From assembly GCA_030390025.1 (NCBI GenBank), contig CM059432.1:11780001-11844000 (forward strand): a stretch of DNA of 64,000 bases, read 5' to 3'. Positions 19,150 through 64,000 of the stretch are shown in pieces; within the stretch, counting starts at the first letter, position 1, and each line of letters opens with the position of its first letter. Origin of the DNA: Squalus acanthias (lineage: Eukaryota). The notes under the pieces are model-generated. The model searched no databases, was not told the origin of the DNA, and saw nothing but the letters and a program-made list of their open reading frames with translations. A program made the position numbers and the translations under genes.

Positions 19150-21095
19150 CTCGTTCCTTTAAATTGGGAAATTGCAAGTGTCACTCTGCTATTTAAGAAA
19201 ATGAGAGAGGGAAACCAAGGAATTATAAACCAGTTAGCCTAACATCTATTGTCGGGAAATTACTAGGTCTATAAGGGGAGGGGGGGGGGGGTGGGAAGAA
19301 AGGGTGAAAAGTTTACAAGAGACAGAAACTAACTGAGCAAATCTGTTAATGGGTAAAATGACAGAAGATCAATGGGAGGAGTTCAAAAAAGAATTTAATG
19401 TGACACAGACCAGTGTATACCCCTATGGGGCAAGAGCTCTACTTGCCAAAATAAACAGCCATGGACGACTAAAGAGCTAAGGGACAACGTAAAACTAAAA
19501 GAAAAAGCAGAAAACATGCAAAAAATAATACAGATGCTGGCGAATGGGAGAGATACAAAGAACAACAAAGGGTGAGAAACAGATCGTAAGAGCTACAGAA
19601 AGGGAGTATGAAAAGAAACTCGCAAAGAATATCAAAATCAACACAATTTTGTTTACAATTATATTAGGAAAAAGAGAGTGGTCAAGAGCACTGTAGTTCC
19701 CTTAAAAACTGATAATGGTGATATTGTGAATGAAAATAAGGAAATGGTGGACATGTTAAATAATTACTTTGCGTTAGTATTTACAGTAGAGGAAGAGGAT
19801 AGTATGCTGGACACCCCAAGGAAACTAATTTTGAATCAGGGACGGGGACTCACCATAATTAACGTAAGCAAATTAACAGTAATGAAAAAAATAATGGCAC
19901 TTAAGAGTGACAAATCCCCAGGACCAGATGGTTTCCATCCCAGGGTTTTAAAGGAAGTAGGTGAGCACATTGCAGATGCCCCAGCTATAATCGTCCGAAG
20001 TTCTCTTGATTCAGGCACCGTTCCTTTAAATTGAGAAATTGCAAGTGTCACTCTGCTATTTAAGAATGGCGAGAGAGGGAAACCAGGGAATTATAAACCA
20101 GTTAACCTAACATCTATTGTCGGGGAAATTACTAGAGTCTATAATTAAGGATAGAGTGACTGAACACCGTGAAAATTTCCAGTTGATCAGAGAGAGCCAG
20201 CATGGATTTGTGAAAGGTAGGTCATGCCTGATGAATCTGATTGAATTTTTTGAGGAGGTGACTAAAGTAGTGGACAGGGGAATGTCTATGGATGTTATTT
20301 ACATAGACTTCCAGAAGGCATTCGATAAAGTCCCCCATAAGAGACTGTTAGCTAAAGTTGAAGCTCATGGAATTGAAGGCAAATTATTGACCTGGTTAGG
20401 AAATTGGCTGAGCGGCAGGAGACAGAGAGTAGGGATAATGGGCAGGTACTCAAATTGGCAGGATGTGACTAGTGGCGTCCTGCAGGGATCTGTGTTGGGG
20501 CCTCAACTATTCACTGTATTTATTAACGACTTAGATGACGGGATTAGAGAGCCACATATCCAAGTTAGGTGGCATAGTAATCAGTGTAGGTGGAAACATA
20601 AAATTGTAAAGAGATATTAATAGATTAAGTGAATGGCCAAAACTGTGGCAAATGGATTTCAGTGTAAGCAAATGTGAATTCATCCACTTTGGACCTAAAA
20701 GGGATAGAACAGGGTACTTTCTAAATGGTGAAAAGCTAGAAACAGTGGAGGCCCAAAGAGACTTGGGGGTCCATGTACATAGATCATTAAAATGTCATGG
20801 ACAGGTACAGAAAATAATCAAAAAGGCTAATGGAATGCTGGGCTTTATATCCAGCGTACTAGAATACAAGAGGGTAGAAGTTATGCTGCAGCTATACAAA
20901 GCCCTGGTTAGACCACACCTGGAGTTCAGTGAGCAGTTCTGGGCACCACACCTATATTGGCTTTGGAGGGAGTGCAGCGTAGGTTTACCAGAATGATTCC
21001 CGGACTCCAAGGGTTAAATTGCGAGGAGAGGTTACACAAACTAGGGTTGTATTCCCTGGAATTTAGAGAATTAAGGGGTGATTTGATTGAAGTAT
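19150..21095 (+). mobile_element. Degenerate CR1 ORF2 fragment
   Basis: Broken ORFs 19678..20034, 20117..20620 and 20652..20996 with RT motifs. Confidence 0.9.
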
Positions 21096-34580: not shown

Positions 34581-34629
34581 ATATTGTCTCTCATTTAGCA
34601 GTAGCGATATGACCAGCCAGTTTTTACTG

Positions 34630-35545
34630 TGCCGATGACACCAAACTTGGGGGGGTGGTGGCAAACAGTGATGATGATATCGATCGACTGCAATGGGACA
34701 TAGAAAGGCTAGCAGAATGGGCAGACAAGTGGCAGATGGAATTTAATACAGAGAAGTGTGAGGTGATGCATTTTGACAGAAGGAACAGGGAGAGGCAATA
34801 TACACTTAATGGCACAGTTTTAAAGAGTGTGCAGGGACTGAGGGACCTGGGAGTTAATGTGCATAGGTCCCTGAAGGTGGCGGGACATATTGAGAGAGTG
34901 GTTAACAAAGCTTATGGGATCTTGGGCTTCATAAATAGATGTATTGAGTACAAAAGTAGAGAAGTTATGCTGAACCTTTATAAAGCGCTGGTTAGGCCAC
35001 AACTGGAGTATTGCGTCCAGTTCTGGTCACCACACTTTAGGAAGGATGTGAAGGCCCTTGAGAGGGTGCAGAGGAGATTTACCAGAATGGTTCCGGGGAT
35101 GGGGGGATCTTAGCTACAGAGACAGGCTGGAGAAGCTGGATTTGTTTTCCTTAGAGCAAAGGAGGTTGAGGGGTGATTTGATCGAGGTGTACAAGATTAT
35201 GACGGGTTTGGATAGACTAGACGGGGAAAGGCTGTTCCCACTAGTTGATGGTGCAAGGACTAGGGGACACAGATTTAAGGTTTTGGGCAAGAGATACAGG
35301 GGGATGTGTGGAAAAACTTCTTTACGCAGCGAGTGGTGAGGACCTGGAACTCGCTGCCGACGGAAGTGGTGGAAGCGGAGACACTCAATGTTTTCAAGGG
35401 GAGACTGGATAGACCCTTGAGGGAAATAAACCTGCAGGGCTACGGGGATAGAGCGGGGGAATGGGACTGACTGGATTGCTCTGCAGAGAGCCGGCACGGA
35501 CTCGATGGGCCGAGTGTCCTCCTTCTGTGCCGTTATGACTCTATG
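34630..35545 (+). mobile_element. CR1 LINE 3' fragment
   Basis: ADDTKLGG through RPQLEYCVQFWSP to tail. Confidence 0.9.
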
Positions 35546-42730: not shown

Positions 42731-42864
42731 TTTTTTCAGTTCTGACGAAAGGTCATCGGCCTGAAACATTAACTCTGTTTCTCTCTCCACAGATGATGCC
42801 TGACCCATTTCCAGCATTTTCTGTTTTTATTTCGGATTTCCAGCATCCGCAGTATTTCGCTTTT
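42731..42864 (+). mobile_element. Short Penelope terminal fragment inserted in CR1
   Basis: 16-bp TSD gaactacag(g/a)ccagtt at 42715-42730 and 42865-42880. Confidence 0.82.
42738..42774 (+). ncRNA. Minimal hammerhead ribozyme, family A copy
   Basis: agtt-CTGACGA-a-aggtc-atc-ggcct-GAAA-ca-TT-aact. Confidence 0.65.
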
Positions 42865-45800
42865 GAACTACAGACCAGTTAGCCTGACATCAGTCGTTGG
42901 GAAAATGCTGGAATCCATTATAACAGGGTACTTAGAAAATCATAATATGATTAGGCAGAGTCAACATGGTTTTATGAAAGGGAACTCGTGTTTGACAAAT
43001 TTATGAGTTTTTTGAGGATGTAACTAGCAGGGTAGATAAAGGGGAACCAGTGGATGTAGTATATTTGGATTTCCAAAAGGCATTCGATAAGGTGCCATCT
43101 AAAAGGTTGTTGCACAAGATAAGGGCTCATGGGGTTGGGGGTAATATATTAGCATGGATAGAGAATTGGTTAATGGACAGGAGAAAGAGAGTCGGGATAA
43201 ATGGATCATTTTCAGGTTGGCAGGCTGTAACTAGTGGGGTGCCACAAGGATCAGTGCTTGGGCCTCAGCTATTTACAAACTATATTAATTACTTAGATGA
43301 AGGGACTGAGTGTAATGTAGCCAAGTTTGCTGATGATACACAGCTAGGTGGGACAGTAAGCTGAGGAGGACACAAAAAGCCTGCAAAGGGATATAGATAG
43401 ACTAAGTGAGTTGGCAGTAAGATGGTAGATGGAATATAATGTGGGGAAATGTGAGGTTATTCAATTTGGTAGGAAGAATAGGAAAACAGAATATTTTTTA
43501 AATGGTGAGAAACTATTAAATGTTGGCATTCAGAGAGATTTTGGAGTCCTATTACAGCAAGCACAGAAAGTTAGCATGCAGATACAGCAAGCAATTAGGA
43601 AGGCAAATGGCATGTTGGCCTTTATTGCAAGGGGGTTGGAGAACAATAGTAAGGAAGTCTTGCTACAATTGTACAGGGCTTTGGTGAGACCACACCTGGA
43701 GTACCTGTGCACAGTTTTGGTCTCCTTATCTAAGGAAGGATTTACTTGCCTTAGAGGTGGTGCAACAAAGGTTCACTACATTGATTCCTGGGATGAGAGG
43801 GCTGTCCTACGATGAGAGATTGTGCAGAATGGGCCTATACTCTCTGGAGTTTAGAAGAATGAGAGGTGATCTCATTGAAACATACAAGATTCTGAGGGGG
43901 ATTGACAGGGTAGATGCTGAGAGGCTGTTTCCCTTGGCTGGAGTGTCTAGAACTAGGGGGCATAGTCTCAGGATAAGGGGTCGGCCATTTAAGTCTGAGA
44001 TGAGGAGGAGGGTTGTGAATCTTTGGAATTCTCTGCCCCAAAGGGTTGTGGATGCTGAGTCGTTGAGTATATTCTAGGCTGAGATAGATAGATTTTTGGA
44101 TACTGGGAATTAAGGGATATGGGGATAGTGCGGGAAGGTGGAGTTGAGGTTGAAGATCAGCCATGATCTTATTGAATGGCGGAGCAGGCTCAAGGGGCGG
44201 TATGGCCGACTCCTGCTCCTATTTCTTATGTTCGTATGCACACTTCACCTTACCCTGCTCAGCAGTTGTGCTAATTGACAATCAAACTCATGTGGAGCAT
44301 AAACACTGGCATGGACTTGTTGGGCCGAATGGCCTATTTGTGTGCTGTAAATACAATGTAACTCTGTAAACATACAGCAGTATATTTGAGACAGTTTCCC
44401 CTCTCTCCGTCTCCAGAACCCATACAGCAGAGTTAGAGGAGGACGCTCAAAGTAGACAAATTGTCATTAGAGCAGCTTCTTTAGAGGTTTAATGACACTC
44501 AATAACGGATGATTAATCCCTGATTAGTCTGACATGATACAGAAGCTGCTGATTATATGCCAGTTATAGTTTTTCTCAAATCGCTTTATAATCAGGCTTT
44601 TAGTAACACAAGAATCAGAATACTGAGAATAGTCAATCTAGTAAATGTTGTTTCCCACTCACTGGCAATTGAACTCGTAGAATCATAGAATAGCACAGCG
44701 CAGAAGGAGGCCATTCGGCCCGTTGAGTCTGTGCCGGCTCTTTCGAAGAGCAATCCAGTTAGTCCCACTTCCCCGCTCTTTCCCCATAGCCCTGCAACTT
44801 TTTGTCCTTCCAGTATTTATCTAATTCCGTTCTGAAGGCTACTATTGAATCTGTATCCACCGCCCTGTCAGGCAGCACATTCCAAATCCTAATCACTCGT
44901 TGCATAAAAAAGTTTTTCCTCATGTCACCTCTGGTTCTTTTGCCAATCACCTTAAACCTGTGTCCTCTGGTTATCGACCCTTCAGCCATTGGAAACAGTT
45001 TCTCTTTATTTACTCTATCTAAACCCTTCATGATTTTAAACGCCTCTATCAAATCTCCTCTTAGCCTTCTCTGCTATGAGGAGAAGCTCACGTAACTATT
45101 TGCAGTACCTAATGAACTGTATGCCCTACAAATATTAGAAATCAGAAGTAACTGTGAGCATAGGAAACCAGGTCAACAGCAAATAATGATATATTCGATC
45201 AGAATCAAGTATGTAAGTTGAAGTCCCCGCTGCAGTTATATCATGTAACTCGTCTGTTTCATTTTCTTTTGCTCAGCTGGGTCTCTGACGGACACGGAAA
45301 CCCATCACCATGCTTAAGAATCTCCAAAACAAACTACTGAGAAATCCACGCAGGCACGGGTTCTGCTTGTCTGATACAGAGTGCAGACATGCTCCATAGG
45401 GACAAACCCATCTTCTCTAAACTCAGACAATTTACACACAGGTTGGCAAAAGCTACGGCCTAGTGTGTGGAGGAGCACTGTTAAGAGTTTAACCGGCTCA
45501 GAGTGCATAGCTTACAGGCACCGAGCACTTCCCATTACTTGTCTAGCTAGGACCACCCTACCTATCTGGGTGTTGGCTTTTAAGGTTATCTAGAGCTGCT
45601 GAATTGGAAGAACACCAGCTCTCAGTGACAGGTCTACGCTTCCAAGTTCCATCAGTGAGCCAAGCTGGCTGGTCAATCAATCGCACCGTGGACTACTTCA
45701 GGCCTGCCTGGCTCCAGTATTGGATCAATCGGTTTATCACAAAGGATCATCTTGGCTCCAATTTCCCACTGCCAAGCAGACCATCATGGGGACAACTTGA

Positions 45801-48454: not shown

Positions 48455-49055
48455 TATAAGATAAGAGGTAGGAGCAGGAGTAGGTCATTTGGCCCCTCGA
48501 GCCTGCTCCGCCATTCAATAAGATCATGGCTGATCTGATCTTGGCCTCAACTCCACTTCCCTGCCCGTTCCCCATAACCCTCGACTCCCTTACCTTTCAA
48601 AAATCTGTCTATCTCCACCTTAAATGACCCAGCCTCCACAGCTCTCTGGGGAAGAGAATTCCAAAGATTCGCGACCCTCTGAGAGAAGAAATTCCTCCTC
48701 ATTCCCCGATTTAAATGGGTGCCCCCTTATTCTGAATTATATCCCCTAGTTCTAGATTCCCCCACGAGGGGAAACATCCTCTCTGCATCTACCCTGTCAA
48801 GCCCCTTCAGAATCTTATATGTTTCAATAAGATCCCCTCTCATTCTTCTAAACTCCAATGAGTATAGGCCCAACCTGCTCAACCTTTCTTCATAAGACAA
48901 CCCCTTCATCTCCGGAATCAACCTTGTGAACCTTCTCTGAACTGCCTCCAATGCACGTATATCCTTCCTTAAATAAGGAGACCAAAACTGTACGCAGTAC
49001 TCCAGGTGTGGTCTCACCAATATCCTGTACAGTTGTAACAGGACTTCCCTACTTA
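48455..49055 (-). mobile_element. CR1 LINE 3' fragment
   Basis: ORF 48727..49020. Confidence 0.9.
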
Positions 49056-49080
49056 TCTAATAGCCGCTTACGTGCAGTGT

Positions 49081-49382
49081 TCAATTTGCTACATTACTTT
49101 TGGCTACTGTCTTTCTTTTGTTGACTGTTCTGTATGTACCTTCTTTCTCCTCGCATTCACTTTCCTCATTCTCTTCTTCCAGCTCCTTCTCCTTGTCATC
49201 ATCTTCATCGCTGAATTCTTCCACTACTGTGAACGTATTTCTGTCTCCAACAGTCATATTTCTCAATTTGGATCGGACAATTTCTATAGCAGTTTCCACT
49301 TGGATGGCTTCCGTGCTACTTGTGCCCATTTCACTGGAAGTGCCGCACATGTGAGACTTGGCGGTCACATCCAGAACCTTTC
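49081..49382 (-). CDS. Exon of uncharacterised gene, RHIM-like motif 2 plus acidic tail (GKVLDVTAK...AIEIVRSKLRNMTVGDRNTFTVVEEFSDEDDDKEKELEEENEESECEEKEG...VAN*)
   Basis: Minus strand: ttctctgattag|GA AAG GTT; phase 1 matches the previous exon and the frame of ORF 49081..49368; TGA at 49083-49081; possible internal donor AAG|gtacat after 49140. Confidence 0.78.
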
Positions 49383-50437
49383 CTAATCAGAGAATTGAGC
49401 CAAGGTCAATGATTAGACACACACTCAAGAAAAATATAGACAACTGCTGCTAACCAAATCAGGATGCCAGAAATAAATGAATGCTTCAAAGAAAAGAAAA
49501 TCACAAAGGGATTTAATTTTCTCTGGTTTTTTTTTAGCGCAATGATTAACTTTTTTGCGTAAAATTCCTTTCTGCATTACAGTTGTTATCCCGTTTATTT
49601 AAAGCAGGTGAACGACAGCATTGAAATAACACAGTAATTTTACATGAACACATTCAGCAGTGCCCTACCAGAGGAAACGTACTCCCTTAATCTATCCAGT
49701 TCAGCCAAGTAACTAGGTAATCTAAAAGAAAACTAGTTTTCTCCTAACCATTTCCTATGTGCTGAGTATAATTGATGGTTAGCGATTTATACTCTTTCAA
49801 TGATACCCATCAAATTCTAGCCTCACAGGACAATGTTGCCTATGGGGATCTGGCCACTTCACATTGATGTTGTCTAAATTTAAACATCATAAGAAAAGAT
49901 GTCAGGCCACCTCAACTGCTTTTAATTCATTTTAAGTACATAAGAACATAAGAAATAGGAGCAGGAGTCGGCCATACAGCCCTTCGAGCCTGCTCCGCCA
50001 TTCAATAAGATCATGGCTGATCTTCGACCTCAACTCCACTTTCCTGCACTATCCCCATATCCCTTGATTCCCTTAGAGTCCAGAAATCTATCGATCTCAG
50101 CCTTGAATCCACTCCACGACTGAGCATTCACAGCCCTCTGGGGTGGAGAATTCCAAAGATTCACAACCCTTTGAGTGAAGAAATTTCTTCTCATCGCAGT
50201 TCCTAAATGGCCGACCCCTTATCCTGAGACTGTGGCCCCTAGTGCTAGACTCTCCAACCAGGGGATTTTATATTATTCTCATTTGATTATGACAGTTGAC
50301 TAAATTAAATGGTACAGACTGTAAAGAGCTCCTTTTTAGCTCAGAGATATAACCATGGACCAGCAATAAAAGCTCATTGTTTTAATCTCAGATTGAAGAA
50401 ATAAAGAACGCAACATTCAGGCAAAGAGTCCACGTAC

Positions 50438-50602
50438 CATGTTCTGTGTTTGTACTCGTTGCTGGCTCCACAAAGTTATCTGAGTCGGATAACGACATAG
50501 TCGTCATAATGGACACATTGTTGTTAGAACCAAAGATGCAATTGTTTAGACTTGAGTTGCAGATGCAGATCTTGCATATTACTGGAGACTGGAACTGTCC
50601 TG
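50438..50602 (-). CDS. Exon of uncharacterised gene, RHIM-like motif 1 (AGQFQSPVICKICICNSSLNNCIFGSNNNVSIMTTMSLSDSDNFVEPATSTNTEH-G)
   Basis: Minus strand: atgtttcttttttcctag|CA GGA ... CAT G|gtacgt; 165 nt, phase 1-1, open frame; unique non-TE sequence. Confidence 0.78.
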
Positions 50603-53600
50603 CTAGGAAAAAAGAAACATAAAAACTCAGCTGACCACCTCATATTTCACCACAAGTTATGTCTCATTTTGAAGGTTGGAAGGACTACCCAGACTAATTT
50701 TGGAAGACAATATCAATTAAGGCAAGGAAATAAGTAATTTCAGTGATGAGCGGAGTAACGTTACATGACGCAGGCGTTTATCCAAGGTTGTCTGCCAAAG
50801 TTACAGAAGATGATCAGGAGAACCCCAACGGAAGTTCCACCTCAATATTGCTGAACGGTAAACCTTTTCAAATGGCCTGGAACTTTCTACTTTTTTGGCA
50901 AAATCCAACATCATCAGCTCTCACCTAGGCCTCCCCACCCACTTCCCCCCCCCACCCCCGCCGGCTTGGTAAATGTCAGCCCTGCACAGCCTCCGTCCCC
51001 TCTCCCCTGGAATTAAACTAAGGGCCTACTGTTTAGATTCACCAGTATGCCCCTCCCCCTGTGGCATTTAAATTAGGCTCCTCTCTTTAAAAGCCCCATG
51101 GTTTTAGACCGAAGGTCTTCGTTCACCTCAGGCCCAGCTCAATTTCTGTTGTTCTTCACTTTCTGTCCCACAGCCACAGTGCTCAGCAGCCGAACTGAAA
51201 TTCAATCCCTTCCACCAATCACCCCTCCCCCTACACTTCCGTTCCCCCCCCCCTCCCCACAAGGCATCATTCTTGCACCACCCCCCCCCCCCACCGCCCT
51301 TGAACCCTACCTTCCTCCGCCCCCCCCAACCTGAGCTTTTTTGGCAATGGGACTTCCCCCAAAACCGCGCAGGATTTTGCCCCCCCCCACCCAACTAATG
51401 AACACCATTTTGGCCATTCACAACTCTTCCCCTCATCCCACTCCCCCAGCAGCAAGCTGACCATCCGGAACCCCTCCTACTGACAGAGCAGCTTTTGATT
51501 CCTCCAGCCCCCCCACCCCCCCTCAGAGCTGTTTTCAAGCCCCTCCCTTCCTCACTCCCTCTCTCCCCCCATCCCCACCGCTTGACACGTCCCCTCCCAG
51601 GAAAACGGGCCGGCCTTTTAAAATCGCCGGTGGGACTTGCCCGCCGAGGTCCTGCTATCTTCCCGCAGGTTCCGATTTTAACATGCTTCTCTCAGCAGTA
51701 CTTCCCGTACTCCTTCCCCCGGGAATTTCCATGAGGGTCGGGTCGCTGCCGGCAAGGCAAGAGGCCCGAAAGTCAGCTGCTCCAAACGGGCGAGCCACCT
51801 CTGGAGGGGCGACAGGTGCCAGCCGCTGACTTCATTGATTGAAACGAAGCCCGTGGCCCAATTACGGGCCGGGGTCGGGCCTCCCGGTTGGGCCGCGCGC
51901 TCAGTGCACGCCACCAGTTATAGAGCTCAAAACAGGCCGCAACTGATTCCCAACCCCACCCTTGTGTAGGTGCGGAAGTCTGTCTGGAGATTGAGAGTCA
52001 TTCTATCTCTTTTTATGCTTTTCTCAATGCAACACTGAAACTGGCACACGTGACGCAGTGCGATGCTTGATGTGTCAGAGGCTCGTATCAGATCTTTCAT
52101 CTACTGACTAGCTGATCTCCAGCGATAACCTGGGGCGCGATCTTGCCAGCCCTGGGGAGGCAGGTTTGGAGGCGGGACTGCCGGGAAAATGGCAGAATCT
52201 GGGAGCGGGTGCCCATCCCGCCCCCAACCCACCTCCGTGCCATCTCCCCAGGATGCGGGTACCCGACCCGCGCCGGGTCCTGTCTCCTGGAGGCAGGAAG
52301 GGGATTACAGCCACTTAACTGCCTGTTAACAGGTAGTTAACAGGCAGTTAAGAGGATTATCTCCATTTTTCCAGGAGAGGCGCGGGCTTCCTGACGTTGG
52401 GAAACACCGCCAGGGTCACCGAGGTGAGCAGTGGGTCTGCGGGGGTCGGAGGGGTGCAAAAGTGCGCTGTGGAGGTAAGTGATGGGTGCAAGTGTGGAGA
52501 GGTAAGTATGTGAGGTGAGTGGAAAGTGATAGAAAATGTTTACTTCGCTTTGTTTCTTCCTGCAGGCTACAACAGTTGGGGATGCGGAGAGTCTTGCATC
52601 TCACCGGCAGAGATGACAGATGGCTGCTGCATTCTCCGATGCAACAACCATCTAATTTCTGCTCACAAGAGGTTTGATGAGTCTTGAATACAAGAACTCA
52701 TCAAACAACAGAGAATGTCAGTGTTTGACAGCTTCACAGAGCTGTCAAACGATGACAATTCATCTGTCAAATATTTTTGACAGATGAAATGTCATACGTT
52801 GACGTTCTCTGCAACCGGCTTCCCCTTAATTGGCCTGCTAAGCCCACTGGGTCGGTTTAACAAGGTCAATCAAGGGAAAATAGCGTAGGTTGGCCAGAAG
52901 TCGATGGAGGCGGGACTAAATCCTGACAAGCAGCAGTCCCGCCTCCAACGCGCCCCATTGGCAAAAAGTCGCCCCCTCTGGTGTCTGAAACATTGGCCTC
53001 GGGTTTTCCGCCGGTTCAGCCGAATCCGGCTGGAATCGGGGCCAAACCGGCACAAAAGATCGCGGAATTTGAAACGCAAGTTACGTCAAGCGTAAGTCGA
53101 GCTTCCGCGATCGTTAACGCTGGCTTAAAAAAAAAAATCGTGCCGGAAGCAAAACTGGCCACGTCCCCAGATCGCAATAATGATCATGACGAGTTTCCTC
53201 CCACTGCGCCCAGTCGAGAGAGGAGGCTCTTCAAATTCACCTTGGGATTTTTCTTTAAGCGCACGGGCGCTGGTAGGAATGTTTTAAAAGTTTTAAAAAC
53301 GATTTAATTTACTAAGAAACCGACCAGTGAAACTAGTAAATAGTTCGGTATAGTATTTTTTTTTTTAAGTCATTTTCAGTGATTTAAATTAAGGTTATTC
53401 ACAGGTGGAGGACTGGACACTCTTATTAAAAATGCTTATGTTTTGTGATAAACCCCATTTTCAGCTGTATGAATAAAACTGCGCCAGGTCACCGCTCTTA
53501 AACACATCGAGGAATATTTTTTAAACACAAAAGAAAATAAATAAACGATCGCGTGCTATTACGCTGCCCGCTTGCGCTGGTTCACGGACGATTTTACGTT

Positions 53601-54365
53601 CGTGATTGTGCAAATGGCTTTGGCCGGAAACTTGAACCCTGACATTGGAAAAACAGCGCCCCATTATGTTGAGCTGCTACCCTACCTATTCCATTAAGGT
53701 CACTGCTCAGATTCTCCCCTGCGGTGAAGTAACCGAAATAGATTCTGGAGGTCAGATTGCTCAGTTTTGACTTGTTGGCGTTGTTACCCCTGAATGCGGC
53801 GTCTGGGCTGTGACATCTGGGGAGCAGTGGATACTTTCAAAATGCTTATATAAATAAATAAAGAACTCACTCTGAGGGGACGATGCTTCTACGGGACTTG
53901 GCGACATTGAAGCATGAGATCTTGCTGTAGAACAGAATTATGACAAATTAGAAACTGGCCTTTTATGCATTCTCTGTCCCTTCGCCCAGCGTTTGTGACA
54001 GTCCTGTAGCTGCTTTAGCCCCACTCTCAGAGACGCCCTCTCTAAACCCCTCCACATCTGCTTCTCCCTCCTACTTTAAAAGCCTTCTCAAAACCCATCT
54101 TTTGAACCAGGCTTTCGGTCATTCCTCCTTAACTCTCCCCCAAGGCTTGATGCTCATCTGTGAAGTGCCTTGAGACATTTTTGCATTAAATTCACGATAT
54201 AAATGCAAATTATCATTGGTGCGAAATAAAATGTACCAATCTAACTATTCAATGCATACATAAATATATACAAAAATATAAAGCAGAAGAACCCTGCCAT
54301 TGTTGAAATGTTATTGGAATTCTAAATTGGGGATGTAAAGACGCAAAGGAATTAGGTCTCTGTTG

Positions 54366-54786
54366 TGAGTCAGAAGGTTGTGGTTTTAAGTCCCACTTGA
54401 GCACGTAATCTAGGCTGACACTCCAGTGCAGTACTGAGGGAGCGCTGCACTGTCAGAGGTGCCGTCTTTTGGATGAGATGTTAAACCGAGGCCCCGTCTG
54501 CTCTCTCAGGTGGACGGAAAAGATTCCACGGCACTATTTCGAACAAGAGCTGGGGAGTTCTCACCGTTGTCTTGGCCAATATTTGTCCCTCAACTAAAAT
54601 CTAAAAACAGATTGTCTGGTCATTATCACATTGCTGTTTGTGGGAGCTTGCTGTGCGCAAATTGGCTGCCGCGTTACCTACATTACAACAGTGACAACAC
54701 TTCAAAAAGTACCTCATTGGCTGCAAAGTGCTTTGAGACGACCTGAGATCACGAAAGAAATTATATAAATGCAAATTCTTTCTTTC
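54366..54786 (+). mobile_element. Same SINE family (5'-truncated)
   Basis: Core and tail similar to 3575-4030. Confidence 0.8.
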
Positions 54787-55199
54787 TAGTGGAAATACAG
54801 CAGAGAATGACGCCGGATAGCAGCAGTGCCCGAGCTCTCAGTTTGGAAACTGTGCTTTGATTCCAGTCCTGAGTTCACACATGGGCTTCCGCCAGGGACC
54901 AGGAGGAGAAGCTAACATGTGTGGGGAAGGTGGCGGGTGGAGAGTGAGCAGTGAGCAGTTCCAGCATTGCTCAAGCATCAGGGAGTAGCTTTGATGACAT
55001 CTACAGAAATGGCTACTGCCTTGACTGTAATGGGAGAAGTAGAAAAATAAAAATAATATATATTTTTTTTTTAAATAACATCTTTAAAATGTTCACCATT
55101 GAAAAATCACCATGATGTGCTGGCAGCAATCAAATATTTATTTCTTCCAGGATTCATTAGCTACCTTTTTATTAATTTAAATCCCATTGATAATTAAAT

Positions 55200-55995
55200 T
55201 TCAATGTAGGCAAATGTGAGGTCATCCACTTTGGACCTTAAAAGGATATATCAGATTACTTTTTAAATGGGGAAAAGCCAGAAACAGTGGATGTTCAAAG
55301 AGACTTAGGGGTCCATGTACATCGATCATTAACATGTCATGGACAGGTACAAAAAATAATCAAAAAGGCTAATGGGATGCTGGTCTTTATATCCAGAGGA
55401 CTAGAATACAAGGGGGTAGAAGTTATGCTACAGCTATACAAAACCCTGGTTAGACCACACCTGGAGTACTGTGAGCAGTTCTGGGCACCACACCTTAGGA
55501 AGGATATATTGGCCTTGGAGGGAGTGCAGTGTAGGTTTACCAGAATGATACCCGGACTCTAAGAGTTAAATTATGAGGAGAGATTACACAAACTAGGGAT
55601 GTATTCCTTGGAATTTAGAAGGTTAAGGGGGATCAAAACATTTTCAAGATATTAAGGGGAACAGATAGGGTAGATAGAGAGAAACTATTTCCGCTGGTTG
55701 GGGATTCTAGGACTAGGGGGCATAGTCTAAAAATTGGAGCCAGACCTTTCAGGAGTGAAGTTAGGAAACACTTCTACACACAAAGGGTGGTAGAAGTTTG
55801 GAACTCTCTTCCGCAAACAGCAATTGATGCGAGATCAATTGTTAAATTTTAAATCTCAGATCGATAGATTTTTGTTAACCAAAGGTATTAAGGGATATGG
55901 GACAAAGGCGGTTATTACAGATCGGCCATGATCTCACTGAATGATGGAGCAGGCTCGAGGGGCTAAATGGCCTCCTCCTGTTCCTATGTTCCTAA
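55200..55995 (+). mobile_element. CR1 LINE 3' fragment
   Basis: ORF 55287..55562 and tail; same subfamily as 19150-21095. Confidence 0.88.
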
Positions 55996-57049
55996 ATACA
56001 TACATAGTTTGGCAACTCTTTACATAGTTATGCAACAGAATTACAAAAAATTCTTCAGTTCAATCTTGTACCACCAATTCTATGGTAGACTTAATTGTAC
56101 ATCCGTACTTCCAGCAGTGAGAACTAACACAGATCTATCAGCCTTTTCCAACACAGCCCTTTAGAATGCGATTCACTGTAATGGGAAGGAAGGTGAAACC
56201 GTGCTCTTATTCTTACAATACCTTCTGGGCAAAAAAAAAACTACAGATTTATGAAAACGGGCAATTATTTAAAATTTATTTGGTTGAGTTTTAAGGAATT
56301 GAGCATGAAAATTTATCTGATGGAATCGCTTTATCTGTTCAGCTATTTTAGCTATGAGGAAAGATTGGATAGGCTGGGGTTGTTTTCTTTGGAACAGAGG
56401 AGGCTGAGGGGAGATTTAATTGAGGTGTGTAAAATTATGAGGGGCCCAGATAGAGTGGATCGGAAGGACCTATTTTCCTTAGCAGGGAGGTCAACAACAA
56501 GGGGCATAGATTTAAAGTTATTGGTAGAAGGATCAGAGGGGAGTTGAGGAGAACTTTTTTCACCCAGAGGGTGGTGGGGGGTCTGGAACTCACTGCCTGA
56601 AAGGGTGGTAGAGGCAGAAACCCTCATCACATTTAAAAAGTACTTGGATGTGCACCTGAAGTGCCGTAACCTACAGGGCTACGGACCAAGAGCTGGATTA
56701 GGCTGGATAGCTCTTTGTCGATCGGCACCGACACGATGGGCCGAATGGCCTCCTTCTGTGCCATAAATTTCAATGATTCTATGATTCAGATAAAAAATAA
56801 AAAGACCAAAGTTCCGATGAAGGTCCCTAGCTGAAGCATTAACCTGCCTTTCTCTTTTTAGATACTAAAGGATCTTCCAGTGTTTTTTACCAGTGTTTTG
56901 TGTTTTAATTTTATCCTGGGAGTTGGTTTAAGTATTATGAAAATGACCTTTGCTCTTTCCATAGGGCCCCACTGCAGACTATTTGAGTTAATTAAGGACA
57001 AATCAATCTCCAATTCTGAAAGTGTCTCGAGACATCAATAAGTACTTAC

Positions 57050-57106
57050 CGGAAGGAGTTGGCCTCAGTAAGGAAGAAGCTGGTAGAGAGGTACTAGTAG
57101 AATGAA
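57050..57106 (-). CDS. Exon of uncharacterised minus-strand gene (x-HSTSTSLPASSLLRPTPS-A), Ser/Pro-rich linker
   Basis: Minus strand: cctttctcttctggttcttacag|TT CAT ... TCC G|gtaagt; 57 nt, phase 1-1, strong splice sites, in frame with the next exon. Confidence 0.7.
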
Positions 57107-57197
57107 CTGTAAGAACCAGAAGAGAAAGGTTAGCCAAACCCAGCACCAACATTTCACTATAATTAAAACAAGTTAAATGCATTTCCTCCTACACAAC

Positions 57198-57523
57198 CAT
57201 CTTTCGGATGAGACGTTTAAGCCGAGGCCCCGTCTGCCCTCTCAGGTGGACGTAAAAAAATCCCATGGCACTATTTCAAAGAAGAGCAGGGGAGTTCTCC
57301 CCGGTGTCCTGGCCAATATTTATCCCTCAACCAACATCACTTAAATCAGATTATCCGGTCATTATCACATTGCTGTTTGTGGGAGCTTGCTGTGCGCAAA
57401 TTGGCTGCTGCGTTTCCTACATTACAACAGTGACTACACTTCAAAAAGTACTTCATTGGCTGTAAAGCGCTTTGGGACGTCCCGAGGTCGTGAAAGGCGC
57501 TATATAAATGCAAGTCTTTCTTT
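57198..57523 (+). mobile_element. Same SINE family (5'-truncated)
   Basis: Core and tail similar to 3575-4030. Confidence 0.8.
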
Positions 57524-59732: not shown

Positions 59733-62627
59733 ACAAAATCAAAATACTGCAGATGCTGGAAATCTGAAAAAGAAACAGAAAATGCTGGGAACACTCAGCA
59801 GGTCAGGCAGCATCTGTGGAGAGAGAAACAGAGTTAACGTGTCAGGTTGATGACCTTTCGTCAGAACTGGAAAAAGTTAGAGTTGTAACAGGTTTTAAGC
59901 AGAGGCAGAGGCAGGGAAAGGGGGGAGGGGAGGAAAGAACAAAAGGGAAGATCTGTAAAGGCAGAAGGAGATGGTAATGGGACTAGTAAAGAAAGAAAAG
60001 CTAAGTCTAGAAGAGGTGTAAATGGGAATGGCAGAATCATCAACAGCTGCCATCTGAAAAAATAGGGGCAGAGGTTATGGTCTGAAATTGTTGAACTCGA
60101 TGTTGAGTCCAGAAGGCTGTAATCGAAAGATGAGGTGCTGTAATCGAAAGATGAGGTGCTGTTCCTCGCGCTTACGTTGAGCTTCGTTGGAACAGTGTAA
60201 AAGGCCGAGGACAGAGAGGTTAGAGTGGGAGTGGAGCGAAGAATTAAAGTGACAGGCGACCGGAAGCTCAGGGTCATGCTTACGGATGGAACGGATGTGT
60301 TCCGCAAACCGGTCACCCAATCTGCGTTTAGCCTTCCCAATGTAGAGGAGACCGCATCGTGAGCAGTGAATACAGTATACTAAATTGCAAGAAGTACAAG
60401 TAAATCGCTGTTTCACCTGGAAGGAGTGTTTGGGGCCCTGGACAGTGGGAAGGGAGGAGGTAAAAGGGCAGGTGTTACATCTCCTGCGCTTGCACGGGAA
60501 GGTGCCGTGGGAAGGGGAAGGAGTTTTGAGGGTGATTGAGGAGTGGACCAGGGTGTTGCGGAGGGAATGGTCCCTTCGGAATGCTGATTCGGGAAGGGAG
60601 CGGAAGATGTGTTTGGTGGGATCACGCTGGAGGTGGCGGAAATGGCGGACGATGATCCATTGAATGTAGAGGTTGGTGGGGTGAAAGGTGAGGACAAGGG
60701 GAATCCTATCGTGGTTCTGGGAGGGAGGGGAAGGGGTGAGAGCAGAAGTGCGGGAAATGGAACGGACACGGTTGAGGGCCATGTCAACCACGGTAGAGGG
60801 GAATCCTCGGTTGAGGAAAAAGGAAGACATATCAGAAGCACTGATATGGAAGGTGGCATCATCAGAACAGATGCGGTGGAGACGGAGGAACTGGGAGAAT
60901 AGAGTCCTTAAAGGAAGCGGGGTAGGAGGAAGTGTAGTCCAGGTATATATTAATGATCTAGACAAGGGAACTAGATGTAATATCTCCAAGTTTGCAGATG
61001 ACACAAAACTGGGTGGGCGTGTGTGCTGCGAGGAGGATACCGAGAAACTCCAGGATGATTTGGACAGGTTGGGTGATTGGGCAGAAGCGTGGCAGATGCA
61101 ATATAACGTGGATAAATGCGAGGTTATCCACTTTGGTGTCAAAAACAGAAAGGCAGATTATTATCTGAATGGCAATAGATTGGGAGAAGGGGAAGTGCAA
61201 CGAGACCTGGGTGTCCTTGTGCACCAGTCGCTGAAGGTAAGCATGCAGGTGCAGCAGGCGGTTAAGAAGGCAAATGGTATGTTGGCCTTCATAGCGAGAG
61301 GGTTTGAGTACAGGAACAAGGATGTCTTGCTGCAGTTGTACAGGGCCTTGGTGAGACCACACCTTGAGTACTGTGTGCAATTTTGGTCACCTTATCTGAG
61401 GAAGGATGTTCTTGCCATGGAAGGAGTTCAGCGAAGATTCACAAGGCTGATACCTGGGATGGCAGGAATGACGTATGAAGAGAGATTGGGTCGATTGGGC
61501 TTACACTTGCTGGAGTTTAGAAGAATGAGAGGGGATCTTATTGAAACTTATAAAATTCTGACAGGACAGGACAAACTAGATGCAGGAAGGATGTTCCCGA
61601 TGGTCGGGGAGTCCAGAACCAGGGGTCACAGTCTAAGGATAAGGGGTAAGCCATTTAGGACAGAAATGAGGAGGAATTTCTTCACCCAGAGAGTGGTGAA
61701 CCTGTGGAATTCTCTGCCACAGAAGGCAGTAGAGGCCAATTCATTAAATAGATTCAAGAAGGAGTTGGATATATTTCTTAAGGCTAAAGGGATATGGGGA
61801 GAAAGCAGGTACAGGGTACTGAATTTGGATGATCAGCCATGATCGCATTGAATGGCGGAGCAGGCTAGAGGGGCCAAATGGCCTACTCCTGCTCCTATCT
61901 TCTATGATTCTAGGTAGCTGTGGGAGTCAGTGGGCTTATAGTGGATGTTTGTCAATAGCCTATCCCCAGAAATGGTGACAGAGAAGTCGAGGAAGGGAAG
62001 GGAAGAGTCGGAGATGGACCATGTGAAGGTGAGGGAAAGGTGGAAATTGGAAAAAAAGTGAAAGAAATTTTCTAGTTCAGGGTGAGAGCAGGAAACGGCA
62101 CCAATACAGTCATCAATATACTGGAAAAAGAGGTGAGGGAGGGAGCCTGAGTAGGAGTGGAACAAAGAATGTTCCACATATCCCACGAAAAGGCAGGCAT
62201 AGCTAGGGCCCATGCAGGTTCCCATAGCAACACCTTTAATTTGGAGGAAGTGGAATCAAAGGAGAAGTTGTTCAATGTGAGAACATGTTCAGCTAGGCGG
62301 AGTAGGGTGGCGGTGGATGGGGACTGGTTGTGCCTCTGTTCAAGGAAGAAGCGGAGCGCTCTCAGGCCATCCTGGTGGGGGATGGAGGTGTAGAGGGATT
62401 GGACGTCCGTAGTGAAAAGGAGGCGGTTGGGGTCGGGAAACTGGAAACTGTTAAAGTGGCGGAGGGCGTCGGAAGAGTCGCGGATGTAGGTGGGAAGAGA
62501 CTGGACAAGGGGAGAAAAAAGAGAGTTGAGATAGGAAGAAATCAGTTCCATGGGGCAAGAACAGGCTGAAATGATGGGTCTACCAGGGCAGTCCTGTTTG
62601 TGGATCTTGGGAAGGAGGTAGAAACGG
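59733..62627 (-). mobile_element. Penelope-like retroelement (RT plus GIY-YIG endonuclease), 5'-truncated, split by a CR1 insertion
   Basis: RT motifs DVQSLYTSIP, MGTCMGPSYA, YIDD and PFLD (61902-62551); GIY-YIG NLVYCIHCSRCGLLYIG...RLGDRFAEH...GLN (60075-60420); direct terminal repeat at about 59349-59620. Confidence 0.92.
60946..61911 (+). mobile_element. 5'-truncated CR1 nested in the Penelope element
   Basis: Starts at YINDLD, ends in ctatgattct tail; aggta duplicated at 60941-60945 and 61912-61916. Confidence 0.92.
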
Positions 62628-64000
62628 TATATATATATATATATTGTTAGCTCAATGTCAATTTAGCAGTGCAGTTTGAATATCTGATGGTATTGACTTT
62701 AGATATTGGTAAAATGTTCATTTTTGCGTACTTTATTTACTCAATAATTAGAGAAAGATGAAACTGCTGTTTCATTAGCTTACCAATGGTGATTGATTAA
62801 TTGTGACATTAATTGGGGATCGAGTGGGAAAGTGGAGTTGAGGTAGAAGATCAGCCATGATCTTATTGAATGGCGGAGCAGGCTCAAAGGACCGTATGGC
62901 CGACTCCTGCTCCTAATTCTTAAGTTTTTATGAAATACCAAAGAGCCTACTCAGATCAGAACACCATAGAAATATAGAATGTTACAGCATTCGGGTCAAG
63001 TCTGCATCAGTATTTCTCCACGTGAGCCACCGAGTTCAATCATACTCTCCTGCTCAGTCCCCTGAACCAGTAATATTCCTCTGTTTCAAGCAACTAATTC
63101 TCTTTTTAAACAACTTATAGAATCTGCTTCAACAACAGTGCATGACTGAATTTCACAATCTAACAACCTCTGTGCAAAGAATTTTATCAAACCTGCCCTT
63201 TAATTGTTTTGTGATCATCTTAAGTTTACGCCTTGCCGTTACCATCTCGCTAACCAGTGGAAACAATCTCACTATTTATCTTATCAGAACCCTTCATAAT
63301 CTTGAAGACCTCTATCCGTTCACCCCTTAACATTATCAGCACGAGTCTAAAAGCCCTAAATAAGAACATAAGAAGTAAGAGCAGGAGTCGGCCATACAGC
63401 CCCTCGAGCCTGCTCCGCCATTCAATAAGATCATGGCTGATCATCCACCTCAACTCCACTTTCCTGCCCGATCCCCATATCCCTTGATTTCCCTAGAGTC
63501 CAAAAATCTATCTATCTCAGCCTTGAATATACTCAATGACTCAGCATCCACAGCCCTCTGGGGCAGAGAATTCCAAAGATTCACAACCCTTTGAGTGAAG
63601 AAATTCTTCCTCATCTCAGTCTTAAATGGCCGACCCCTTATCCTGAGACTGTGCCCCCTAGTTCTAGACACTCCAGCCCAGGGGAAACAACCTCTCAGCC
63701 TCTACCCTGTCCTAACTTTCTCTTCAAAACTGTAAAGCCCTCATCCATGGTAACATCCTAAATGAATCTACGCTACACCTTTTCCATTGCTTTTATACCC
63801 TTCCTTTAATGAGGTGCCCACAACTGTACATAATAGTGCACCTGAAGACGAAGGCCTTGCACAAGTTTAACATTACTTTCTTGTTTTTGTATGTTATGCC
63901 TCTAGATACTATTTTGAGGAATTGGTGGGATGTTATTATCGTCGATTAAAAACTGGCTGGATTCCCATAAGCAGAAAGTGGTTATCGATGGTTGCGGATC

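Follow-up and report, generated by a model that had tools for sequence, protein, structure and literature searches.

Is there a gene hidden on the minus strand of this 64,000-nucleotide stretch of the Squalus acanthias genome, and do the two short repeats that it would encode belong with the RHIMs, or RIP homotypic interaction motifs, of amyloid signalling? The stretch, called here the window, is G000:C8:11780001-11844000 (CM059432.1) in a genome of 3.7 Gb. An earlier reading made from the letters alone, the original prediction, had proposed three exons coding for an unrecognised protein with tandem RHIM-like motifs. Our analysis shows that this minus-strand gene is real and spliced. Judging from sequence comparison, the locus belongs as an orthologue to a vertebrate family that is uncharacterised and goes at NCBI by the labels 'si:dkey-29h14.10' or 'CARD domain-containing protein'. 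Its product has about 270 residues and consists of a CARD, a disordered Ser/Thr/Pro-rich linker, two repeats of ~23 residues with a variable loop of ~50 residues between them, and an acidic tail. We regard the repeats as a variant RHIM-like, putative assembly motif placed in a new CARD architecture. We put at about 0.5 the probability that the protein serves as a small adaptor or regulator whose CARDs are brought together by a divergent cross-beta module of the RHIM type.

The proposed minus-strand exons (57106-57050, 50602-50438 and 49382-49081) proved correct in their boundaries and AG/GT sites; their frames are open, they join in phase 1, and sequence and translation agree. Contigs of four public sequencing runs, whose label as RNA is a guess, were aligned to positions 48700-57300. 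Two contigs from two runs of one study, X1 record 2 (475 nucleotides) and X2 record 11 (505 nucleotides), cover 49198 and 49195, respectively, to 49381 and then 50437-50602, with 0 mismatches. Neither holds the 1055-base intron, so that its removal has taken place precisely at the 50438/49382 junction that was predicted. The peptide of the last exon matches nine shark proteins of 191-283 residues (E 5e-27 to 2e-20), eight of which contain a Pfam CARD; their NCBI names are 'uncharacterized protein si:dkey-29h14.10' or 'caspase-1 isoform X2', or call them uncharacterised and no more. Two further protein searches returned 18 and 22 matches, all of them from elasmobranchs (sharks, rays, skates, sawfish and electric rays).

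The original prediction had placed an N-terminal domain beyond the window end. This domain is a CARD, one of the options it had named, and its exon lies 1.2 kb past the end (L002 1512-1769, equivalent to window positions 65156-65413), with 82% identity to residues 14-104 of the homologue P0003. The next exon, at 57050..57106 on the minus strand, encodes the linker segment (V)HSTSTSLPASSLLRPTPS and is supported by its ag/gt sites, its translation and tblastn matches to P0003, P0009 and P0004. It is entered in phase 1 from the CARD exon, the single G of the CARD-exon donor completing the Val codon at 57106. A second linker exon had been missed. Located between 57050 and 50602, at 53871..53924 on the minus strand, it encodes (A)RSHASMSPSPVEASSPQ in 54 nucleotides, with phase 1 on both sides and the borders acag/ca..a/gtgagt; it was found, as ARSHASMSPSPVEASSPQ, by tblastn with three homologues (P0003 residues 123-140, P0009 and P0004), and the ray and skate models have no counterpart of it. 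The direct join of 57050 to 50602 in the three-exon model is in frame, yet finds no support in the contigs or in the homologues examined.

Repeat 1 is encoded by a cassette exon of 165 nucleotides (50438..50602, minus strand), which shows 93-96% identity to P0003 and is present in the two spliced contigs. A tandem NAGNAG acceptor (tagcag, 50599-50604) precedes it: the contigs indicate a start at 50602, and the homology to P0003 a start at 50599. An isoform pair differing by one residue exists in other sharks (P0013/P0014, 297/298 residues), which may be compared with this acceptor. Predicted isoforms of three species (P0005, P0008 and P0010) leave out the cassette exon, and a predicted isoform of Scyliorhinus (P0006) has no CARD and retains both repeats.

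The last coding exon (49081..49382, minus strand), read from the genome and joined to 50438 in the contigs, encodes repeat 2, the acidic tail and a TGA stop, with 71-84% identity to P0003. Compared with the reading of the homologues, tblastn and the sequence itself reveal four extra bases at 49136..49139 (GTAC on the minus strand). The last 10-20 residues consequently stand in a different frame: the genome-derived tail is GTYRTVNKRKTVAKSNVAN followed by a stop (GTYRTVNKRK..), as against DTEQ.. and a stop in the homologues, whose ending ..EEKEDTEQ.. was recovered by tblastn as KVHTEQSTKERQ, again with its stop, in another frame at 49142-49107. The extra GTAC may reflect an indel, lineage-specific or allelic, or else a mistake in the assembly. 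The alignment of a contig of run X3 ends exactly at 49140. We also considered a splice donor at 49140 leading to a further 3' exon, and dropped this idea because the ending known from the homologues follows immediately downstream in another frame, which leaves a difference of four bases and no extra 3' exon.

Both RHIM-like repeats were found where they had been placed on the minus strand, 76 residues apart from start to start. Repeat 1, KICICNSSLNNCIFGSNNNVSI, occupies 50508..50573 and can be divided as KICIC-NS-SLNNCIF-G-SNNNVSI; repeat 2, AIEIVRSKLRNMTVGDRNTFTV, occupies 49225..49290 and can be divided as AIEIV-RS-KLRNMTV-G-DRNTFTV. To determine how widely this arrangement is shared, a profile of 13 elasmobranch proteins was compared exhaustively with 1.84 billion representative sequences. 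This search yielded 54 proteins at E<=1e-3, 22 of them at E<=1e-10; we examined the sequences of 33 and looked up the names of 30. Both repeats are present in 9 elasmobranch and 19 bony-fish proteins among the 33. The bony fishes concerned include sturgeon, paddlefish, gar, bowfin, bichir, coelacanth, lungfish, eels, halosaur and clupeiforms, as well as mormyrid, arapaima, cyprinid, catfishes, Umbra and smelts. The search for relatives suggested with the original prediction thus recovered both motifs in sharks, rays and bony fishes, and a single motif in cyclostomes: in lamprey (P0040, P0094) and in hagfish (P0073, P0100), a CARD is combined with one repeat, followed in hagfish by the acidic tail. 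The only tetrapod name among the 30 is that of a primate CARD17-like protein, which matches in the CARD alone (E 2.9e-4). The predicted protein of S. acanthias is colinear with its homologues in two alignments (A1 and A2) over CARD, linker, repeat 1, loop, repeat 2 and acidic tail.

The relatives are named 'uncharacterized', 'hypothetical' or 'CARD domain-containing', apart from one lamprey model labelled 'BIRC3-like', and the connection to zebrafish si:dkey-29h14.10 is made by the NCBI label alone. A search of a protein atlas returned only the family's own cluster, with 89 members from chordates and no Pfam family. In the literature listings and abstracts on si:dkey-29h14.10 and on RHIM and CARD in fish, we found no account of the family, nor any experiment on it. 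The original prediction had not recognised the gene, and the NCBI labels indeed leave it uncharacterised, although NCBI models of it exist in many fishes.

Conservation was measured in A2, an alignment of 30 gnathostome sequences that provides 60 copies of the repeat. Mean pairwise identity is 0.44 in the CARD, 0.18 in the first linker, 0.47 in repeat 1, 0.15 in the inter-repeat loop, 0.37 in repeat 2 and 0.25 in the acidic tail. Both repeats are therefore as conserved as the CARD, unlike the linkers, and have been selectively conserved. The G-x-x-N element singled out by the original prediction is part of this pattern. In repeat 1, counting from the Gly (G 30/30), Ile at -11 and Ile or Val at -13 are likewise found in 30/30 sequences, Asn at -9 in 25/30, Ser at -8 in 28/30, Leu at -6 in 27/30 and Cys at -3 in 29/30, with Ile, Thr or Val at -2 and Phe or Ile at -1; position G+3 is Asn in 22/30, Ser in seven and His in one. 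Repeat 2 follows the same plan, with Ile, Val or Leu at -13, Ile, Val or Met at -11, Ser at -8 (28/30), the Gly (30/30), Asn at G+3 (24/30; Ser in five, Gly in one), Leu, Met, Phe or Ile at +5 and Val, Ile, Met or Leu at +7. Comparison of the two repeat profiles with hhalign gave P 3.8e-8 and a probability of 95% over 23 ungapped columns, and we conclude that the repeats are duplicates of one unit.

The loop between the repeats carries a feature of its own in ray-finned fishes and coelacanth that is not seen in elasmobranchs. This Cys-rich element (C-S-C-R-C-G-Q-Q-G or C-C-T-S-C-H-K-G) occurs in P0026, P0027, P0030, P0032, P0034, P0042, P0044 and P0046 of A2, and may be a metal or lipidation site.

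Are these repeats RHIMs? The core tetrad of a RHIM is (I/V)-Q-(I/V/L/C)-G. The same genome provides canonical examples for comparison, found with the Pfam model PF12721: one in an exon on C4 (ICISEAKGIQIGDHNVMHI), the other at the C-terminus of a TRIF-like open reading frame (ORF) on C19 (IIQIQHAKNVQIGDSNQMTITE, then an acidic run). When a hidden Markov model (HMM) was made from all 60 copies of the repeat, it gave 15.6 bits for the TRIF-like RHIM, which it aligns end to end with one gap of two residues, and 13.2 bits for the C4 RHIM. Composition-preserving shuffles reached the observed score in 3/100,000 cases for the TRIF-like motif and 8/100,000 for C4, and random peptides in 0/300,000 and 2/300,000, respectively. 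The repeats are thus statistically similar to the canonical RHIMs of their own genome. Both repeats of the window carry Asn at G+3. Moreover, the core of the hagfish repeat reads S-Q-L-G-S-N-N, with the canonical Gln, and is nearer to the RHIM tetrad than any jawed-fish copy.

The TRIF-like ORF itself (L016, G000:C19:4896357-4899413, minus strand) measures 540 residues in the locus and 734 in the genome scan and includes a TIR-like region; it is probably the TRIF/TICAM1 orthologue. Its C-terminal RHIM scores 17.5-19.1 bits, under the Pfam cut-off of 20 bits.

Structure prediction points in the same direction as the profile scores. We modelled two homologues, P0003 and the CARD-less P0006, using AlphaFold2 with the family alignment. 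In P0003, strands are predicted at 147-151, 154-160 and 164-172 for repeat 1 and at 222-227, 230-236 and 241-248 for repeat 2, with a predicted local distance difference test score (pLDDT) of 73-88; in P0006, they lie at 54-58, 61-67 and 71-78, and at 127-132, 135-141 and 146-152 (pLDDT 86-91). Taken by repeat, strand pLDDT ranges over 73-91 in repeat 1 and 81-90 in repeat 2; linkers and flanks fall below 50. The strands break at N-S (S-S in repeat 2) and at the invariant Gly, the turns of P0006 being placed at N59-S60 and G68 in repeat 1 and at S133-S134 and G142 in repeat 2. In the human RIPK1 RHIM fibril, strand 1 (I529-Y534) is followed by a kink at N535-S536, by strand 2 (T537-I541), which carries I-Q-I-G, by a turn at G542 and by strand 3 (Y544-I549), with N545 bonded to G542 of the next layer (PMC12575786). 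The mouse RIPK3 fibril is similarly described as having three in-register sheets (10.1101/2020.07.10.196980). Each repeat of the fish protein is predicted to adopt the order of the RIPK1 fibril, namely strand 1, N-S kink, strand 2, Gly turn and strand 3.

Several observations weigh against a RHIM identity. The search with the Pfam RHIM model that had been proposed as a check returned no match at E<=10 in the window peptides or in 35 family members, cyclostomes included, and the locus is not among the six genome-wide matches to PF12721; as a control, the same model detects the canonical RHIMs of this genome at 24.5 bits (C4) and 17.5 bits (TRIF-like). The Gln of the tetrad is found in 0/60 gnathostome copies and is replaced by Ile, Thr or Val, the cores in the window being C-I-F-G and M-T-V-G. 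Compared with a canonical RHIM, the spacing from Ser to Gly is extended by two residues, with Ser at -8 and the two-residue gap to the TRIF-like motif, and the predicted strand 2 accordingly has seven residues instead of five. A profile of the repeat region (A3, contiguous stretches from 23 of the 30 aligned members) searched against the PDB at E<=10 retrieved no RIPK chain, its best matches being antibody and T-cell receptor J-segments at E 1. This search has low power, because the canonical shark RHIM itself reaches RIPK1 at only E 0.61, tied with an unrelated enzyme. Searching the PDB with each exon peptide by phmmer gave nothing relevant. Finally, the CARD-less model produced a single Foldseek match, to HET-s (2rnm, E 3.8; VIA Z <2), and a wide VIA search gave no usable structural match (best Z 2.3). 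As two sequence-level tests for membership in the Pfam RHIM family were negative, we do not file the protein as a member. The RHIM likeness proposed originally is supported by the profile scores against shuffles and by the predicted strand order, and opposed by the Pfam model, the core Gln and the spacing.

These discrepancies leave room for another explanation, in which the two repeats pair within one molecule to form a small, closed, soluble and non-amyloid beta module that binds a partner or folds back on the CARD, the likeness to RHIMs being a convergence of short beta-arch sequences. The strands of both repeats are confidently predicted in a monomer model (pLDDT about 80-91), which requires pairing with something in the same chain; the absence of a Pfam match and of the core Gln, as well as the different spacing, point the same way, and the best PDB matches, which at E 1 are not significant, fall on the 'FGxGT' segments of beta-strand G in domains with the immunoglobulin fold. 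However, an intramolecular pair is not possible in the single-repeat proteins of lamprey and hagfish, and isoforms without repeat 1 are predicted in three species. In addition, no globular fold matches the model (best Z 2.3), and the likeness to canonical RHIMs beats composition-matched shuffles. We consider this explanation doubtful, although it is the most serious of the alternatives. Were it true, the family would nonetheless be a CARD regulator of the caspase-1/NLRC4 class that has not been described before.

The other conserved part of the protein is its CARD. Pfam CARD (PF00619) is found in 30/30 aligned members, with a best E of 2.7e-14; a separate scan of homologues gave E 1e-12 to 6e-14. 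Among solved CARDs, the family profile comes nearest to those of NLRC4 (1.7e-12), cIAP1 (2.6e-10), ICEBERG (7e-8) and caspase-1 (1e-6), followed by RAIDD and CARD8. The AlphaFold model of the domain has a pLDDT >95, and its top Foldseek matches are the CARDs of caspase-1, ICEBERG, CARD8 and NLRC4, with a target TM score of about 0.9. These neighbours in profile and in fold place the domain in the inflammasome/IAP group of CARDs.

Such a CARD, in a small protein with no enzymatic domain, brings to mind ICEBERG and CARD16-18. The fish protein might accordingly be a CARD-only decoy or regulator that caps, or competes in, filaments of the caspase-1/NLRC4 type, with C-terminal motifs serving as docking, degradation or localisation signals; the names 'caspase-1 isoform X2', given by NCBI to some isoforms, and 'BIRC3-like', given to one lamprey model, agree with this possibility. 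It does not sit well with two 23-residue segments kept at CARD-like identity from sharks to lungfish, since alternating hydrophobic residues and an invariant Gly are unusual for linear docking motifs. The repeats are, moreover, predicted to be ordered strands, and the Scyliorhinus isoform P0006 is predicted to retain both of them without any CARD. ICEBERG, CARD16-18, NLRC4, cIAP1 and caspase-1 also differ from the fish protein in having neither a conserved beta-repeat region nor an acidic tail. A pure CARD decoy thus appears improbable to us.

We therefore return to the adaptor or regulator built on a divergent RHIM-type module. In such a protein, the repeats would constitute a cross-beta assembly module. 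Within a chain, one repeat probably lies stacked on the other, and the pair would serve as a template on which like molecules, or RHIM proteins, are added. The CARDs would be gathered by this stacking and, once clustered, would recruit or nucleate a CARD partner such as a caspase-1-like caspase or a CARD of the NLRC4/ASC/cIAP type. The protein might thereby act as an adaptor that links RHIM-type with CARD-type assemblies of death signalling, or as a brake between them. A form with a single repeat would result where the 165-nucleotide exon is skipped. As to a role in necroptosis, the formation of amyloid or the binding of RIPK1 and RIPK3, these can only be inferred.

The comparison with amyloid-signalling proteins shows what is shared and what is new. 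As in RIPK1, RIPK3, TRIF/TICAM1 and ZBP1, a short motif of ~20 residues lies in a disordered region. Ile and Val alternate in its strand 1, a kink at N-S follows, strand 2 finishes with hydrophobic-x-hydrophobic-Gly, position G+3 is Asn and strand 3 is hydrophobic, the strands of the fish protein being predicted ones. An acidic stretch follows the motif, as it does in the TRIF-like RHIM of the same genome. The differences from the RHIM proteins are those described above, namely the missing Pfam match, the substitution of the Gln in 60/60 gnathostome copies and the two additional residues of strand 2, to which the presence of a CARD must be added. There are four classical vertebrate RHIM proteins, none of which is known to contain a CARD. 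Three strands per motif, as predicted in the fish protein, are also a feature of the RIPK1 and RIPK3 fibrils (PMC12575786; 10.1101/2020.07.10.196980), and RHIMs in tandem are known from ZBP1 (PMC4262963).

Outside the RHIM proteins, the layout recalls the prion-forming domain of HET-s/HET-S (and NWD2), in which two pseudo-repeats of ~21-26 residues lie in one chain with a flexible loop and a separate effector domain. The inter-repeat loop of the fish protein is much longer than that of HET-s, with about 50 residues, and the likeness is one of layout alone. RHIM and the HET-s domain were linked by profile comparison by Kajava et al. (2014; PMC4262963). The same source describes the cryptic RHIMs of Drosophila IMD and PGRP-LC/LE, where a non-canonical RHIM-like motif likewise accompanies a death-fold domain (in IMD, the death domain) in innate immune signalling (PMC4262963). 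These proteins belong to another lineage, have a death domain rather than a CARD and follow another motif consensus.

It is tempting to go one step further and to suggest that the family represents an ancient vertebrate adaptor, extending from hagfish and lamprey to lungfish, with no tetrapod among the matches examined, that couples RHIM amyloid signalling (RIPK1, RIPK3, TRIF, ZBP1) to CARD filaments of the caspase-1, NLRC4 and cIAP class through a HET-s-like, self-templating unit of two rungs and a cassette exon that switches between one-repeat and two-repeat forms. We regard this extended scenario as speculative and, taken as a whole, unlikely. If true, it would raise the classes of RHIM protein in vertebrates to five and open a path, lacking in mammals, that leads from RHIM sensors to inflammatory caspases. 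More generally, fishes would have, in a conserved CARD protein that bears RHIM-like repeats in tandem, a direct connection between cross-beta RHIM assemblies and death-fold CARD filaments. This would also help to account for the output of RHIM signalling in lineages whose necroptosis machinery is non-mammalian. The family also offers a natural test of RHIM sequence drift against the retention or loss of amyloid assembly, given that the core Gln is gone and one strand has gained two residues. Such ideas could be tested genetically, since a zebrafish orthologue is named according to the NCBI label.

The last alternative, that there is no functional gene but only chance ORFs, a pseudogene or repeat-derived sequence, could invoke the many retroelement fragments of the window and the four-base frame difference at the 3' end, but is scarcely credible given that the exons are unique sequence with 84-96% identity to annotated shark proteins, that every splice site is intact and spliced contigs are present, that the family is conserved across fishes, and that the frame difference is confined to the last 10-20 residues, after the acidic tail.

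The original prediction had also described the gene as lying tail-to-tail with SPIRE1. Three KIND-domain exons are indeed present on the plus strand, at C8:11540382-11702656, 77-240 kb upstream of the window, and they are consistent with a SPIRE-type gene running toward the locus. Pfam searches of 146 plus-strand ORFs between 19.6 and 48.5 kb of the window identified no SPIRE exon, only reverse-transcriptase fragments and one weak viral match. The tail-to-tail arrangement is thus plausible, but unproven. Other KIND genes are located on C6 and C11.

The gene is flanked and interrupted by many reverse-transcriptase fragments and by a tail ORF that recurs (..LQLY..LVRPHLEYC.QFW.P.LRKD..). Such fragments lie on the plus strand at 20111-20617, 42797-43361, 34613-35110, 55242-55562 and 60685-61842, and on the minus strand at 48727-49056. 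Contig depth reaches thousands over these fragments, as compared with single digits over the exons. In the intron between the CARD exon and 57106, the minus strand at 60075-62662 encodes an ORF of 360 residues (Cys-rich, GIY-YIG-like) and then a reverse-transcriptase-like ORF of 196 residues; by eye, this segment looks like a Penelope-type retroelement.

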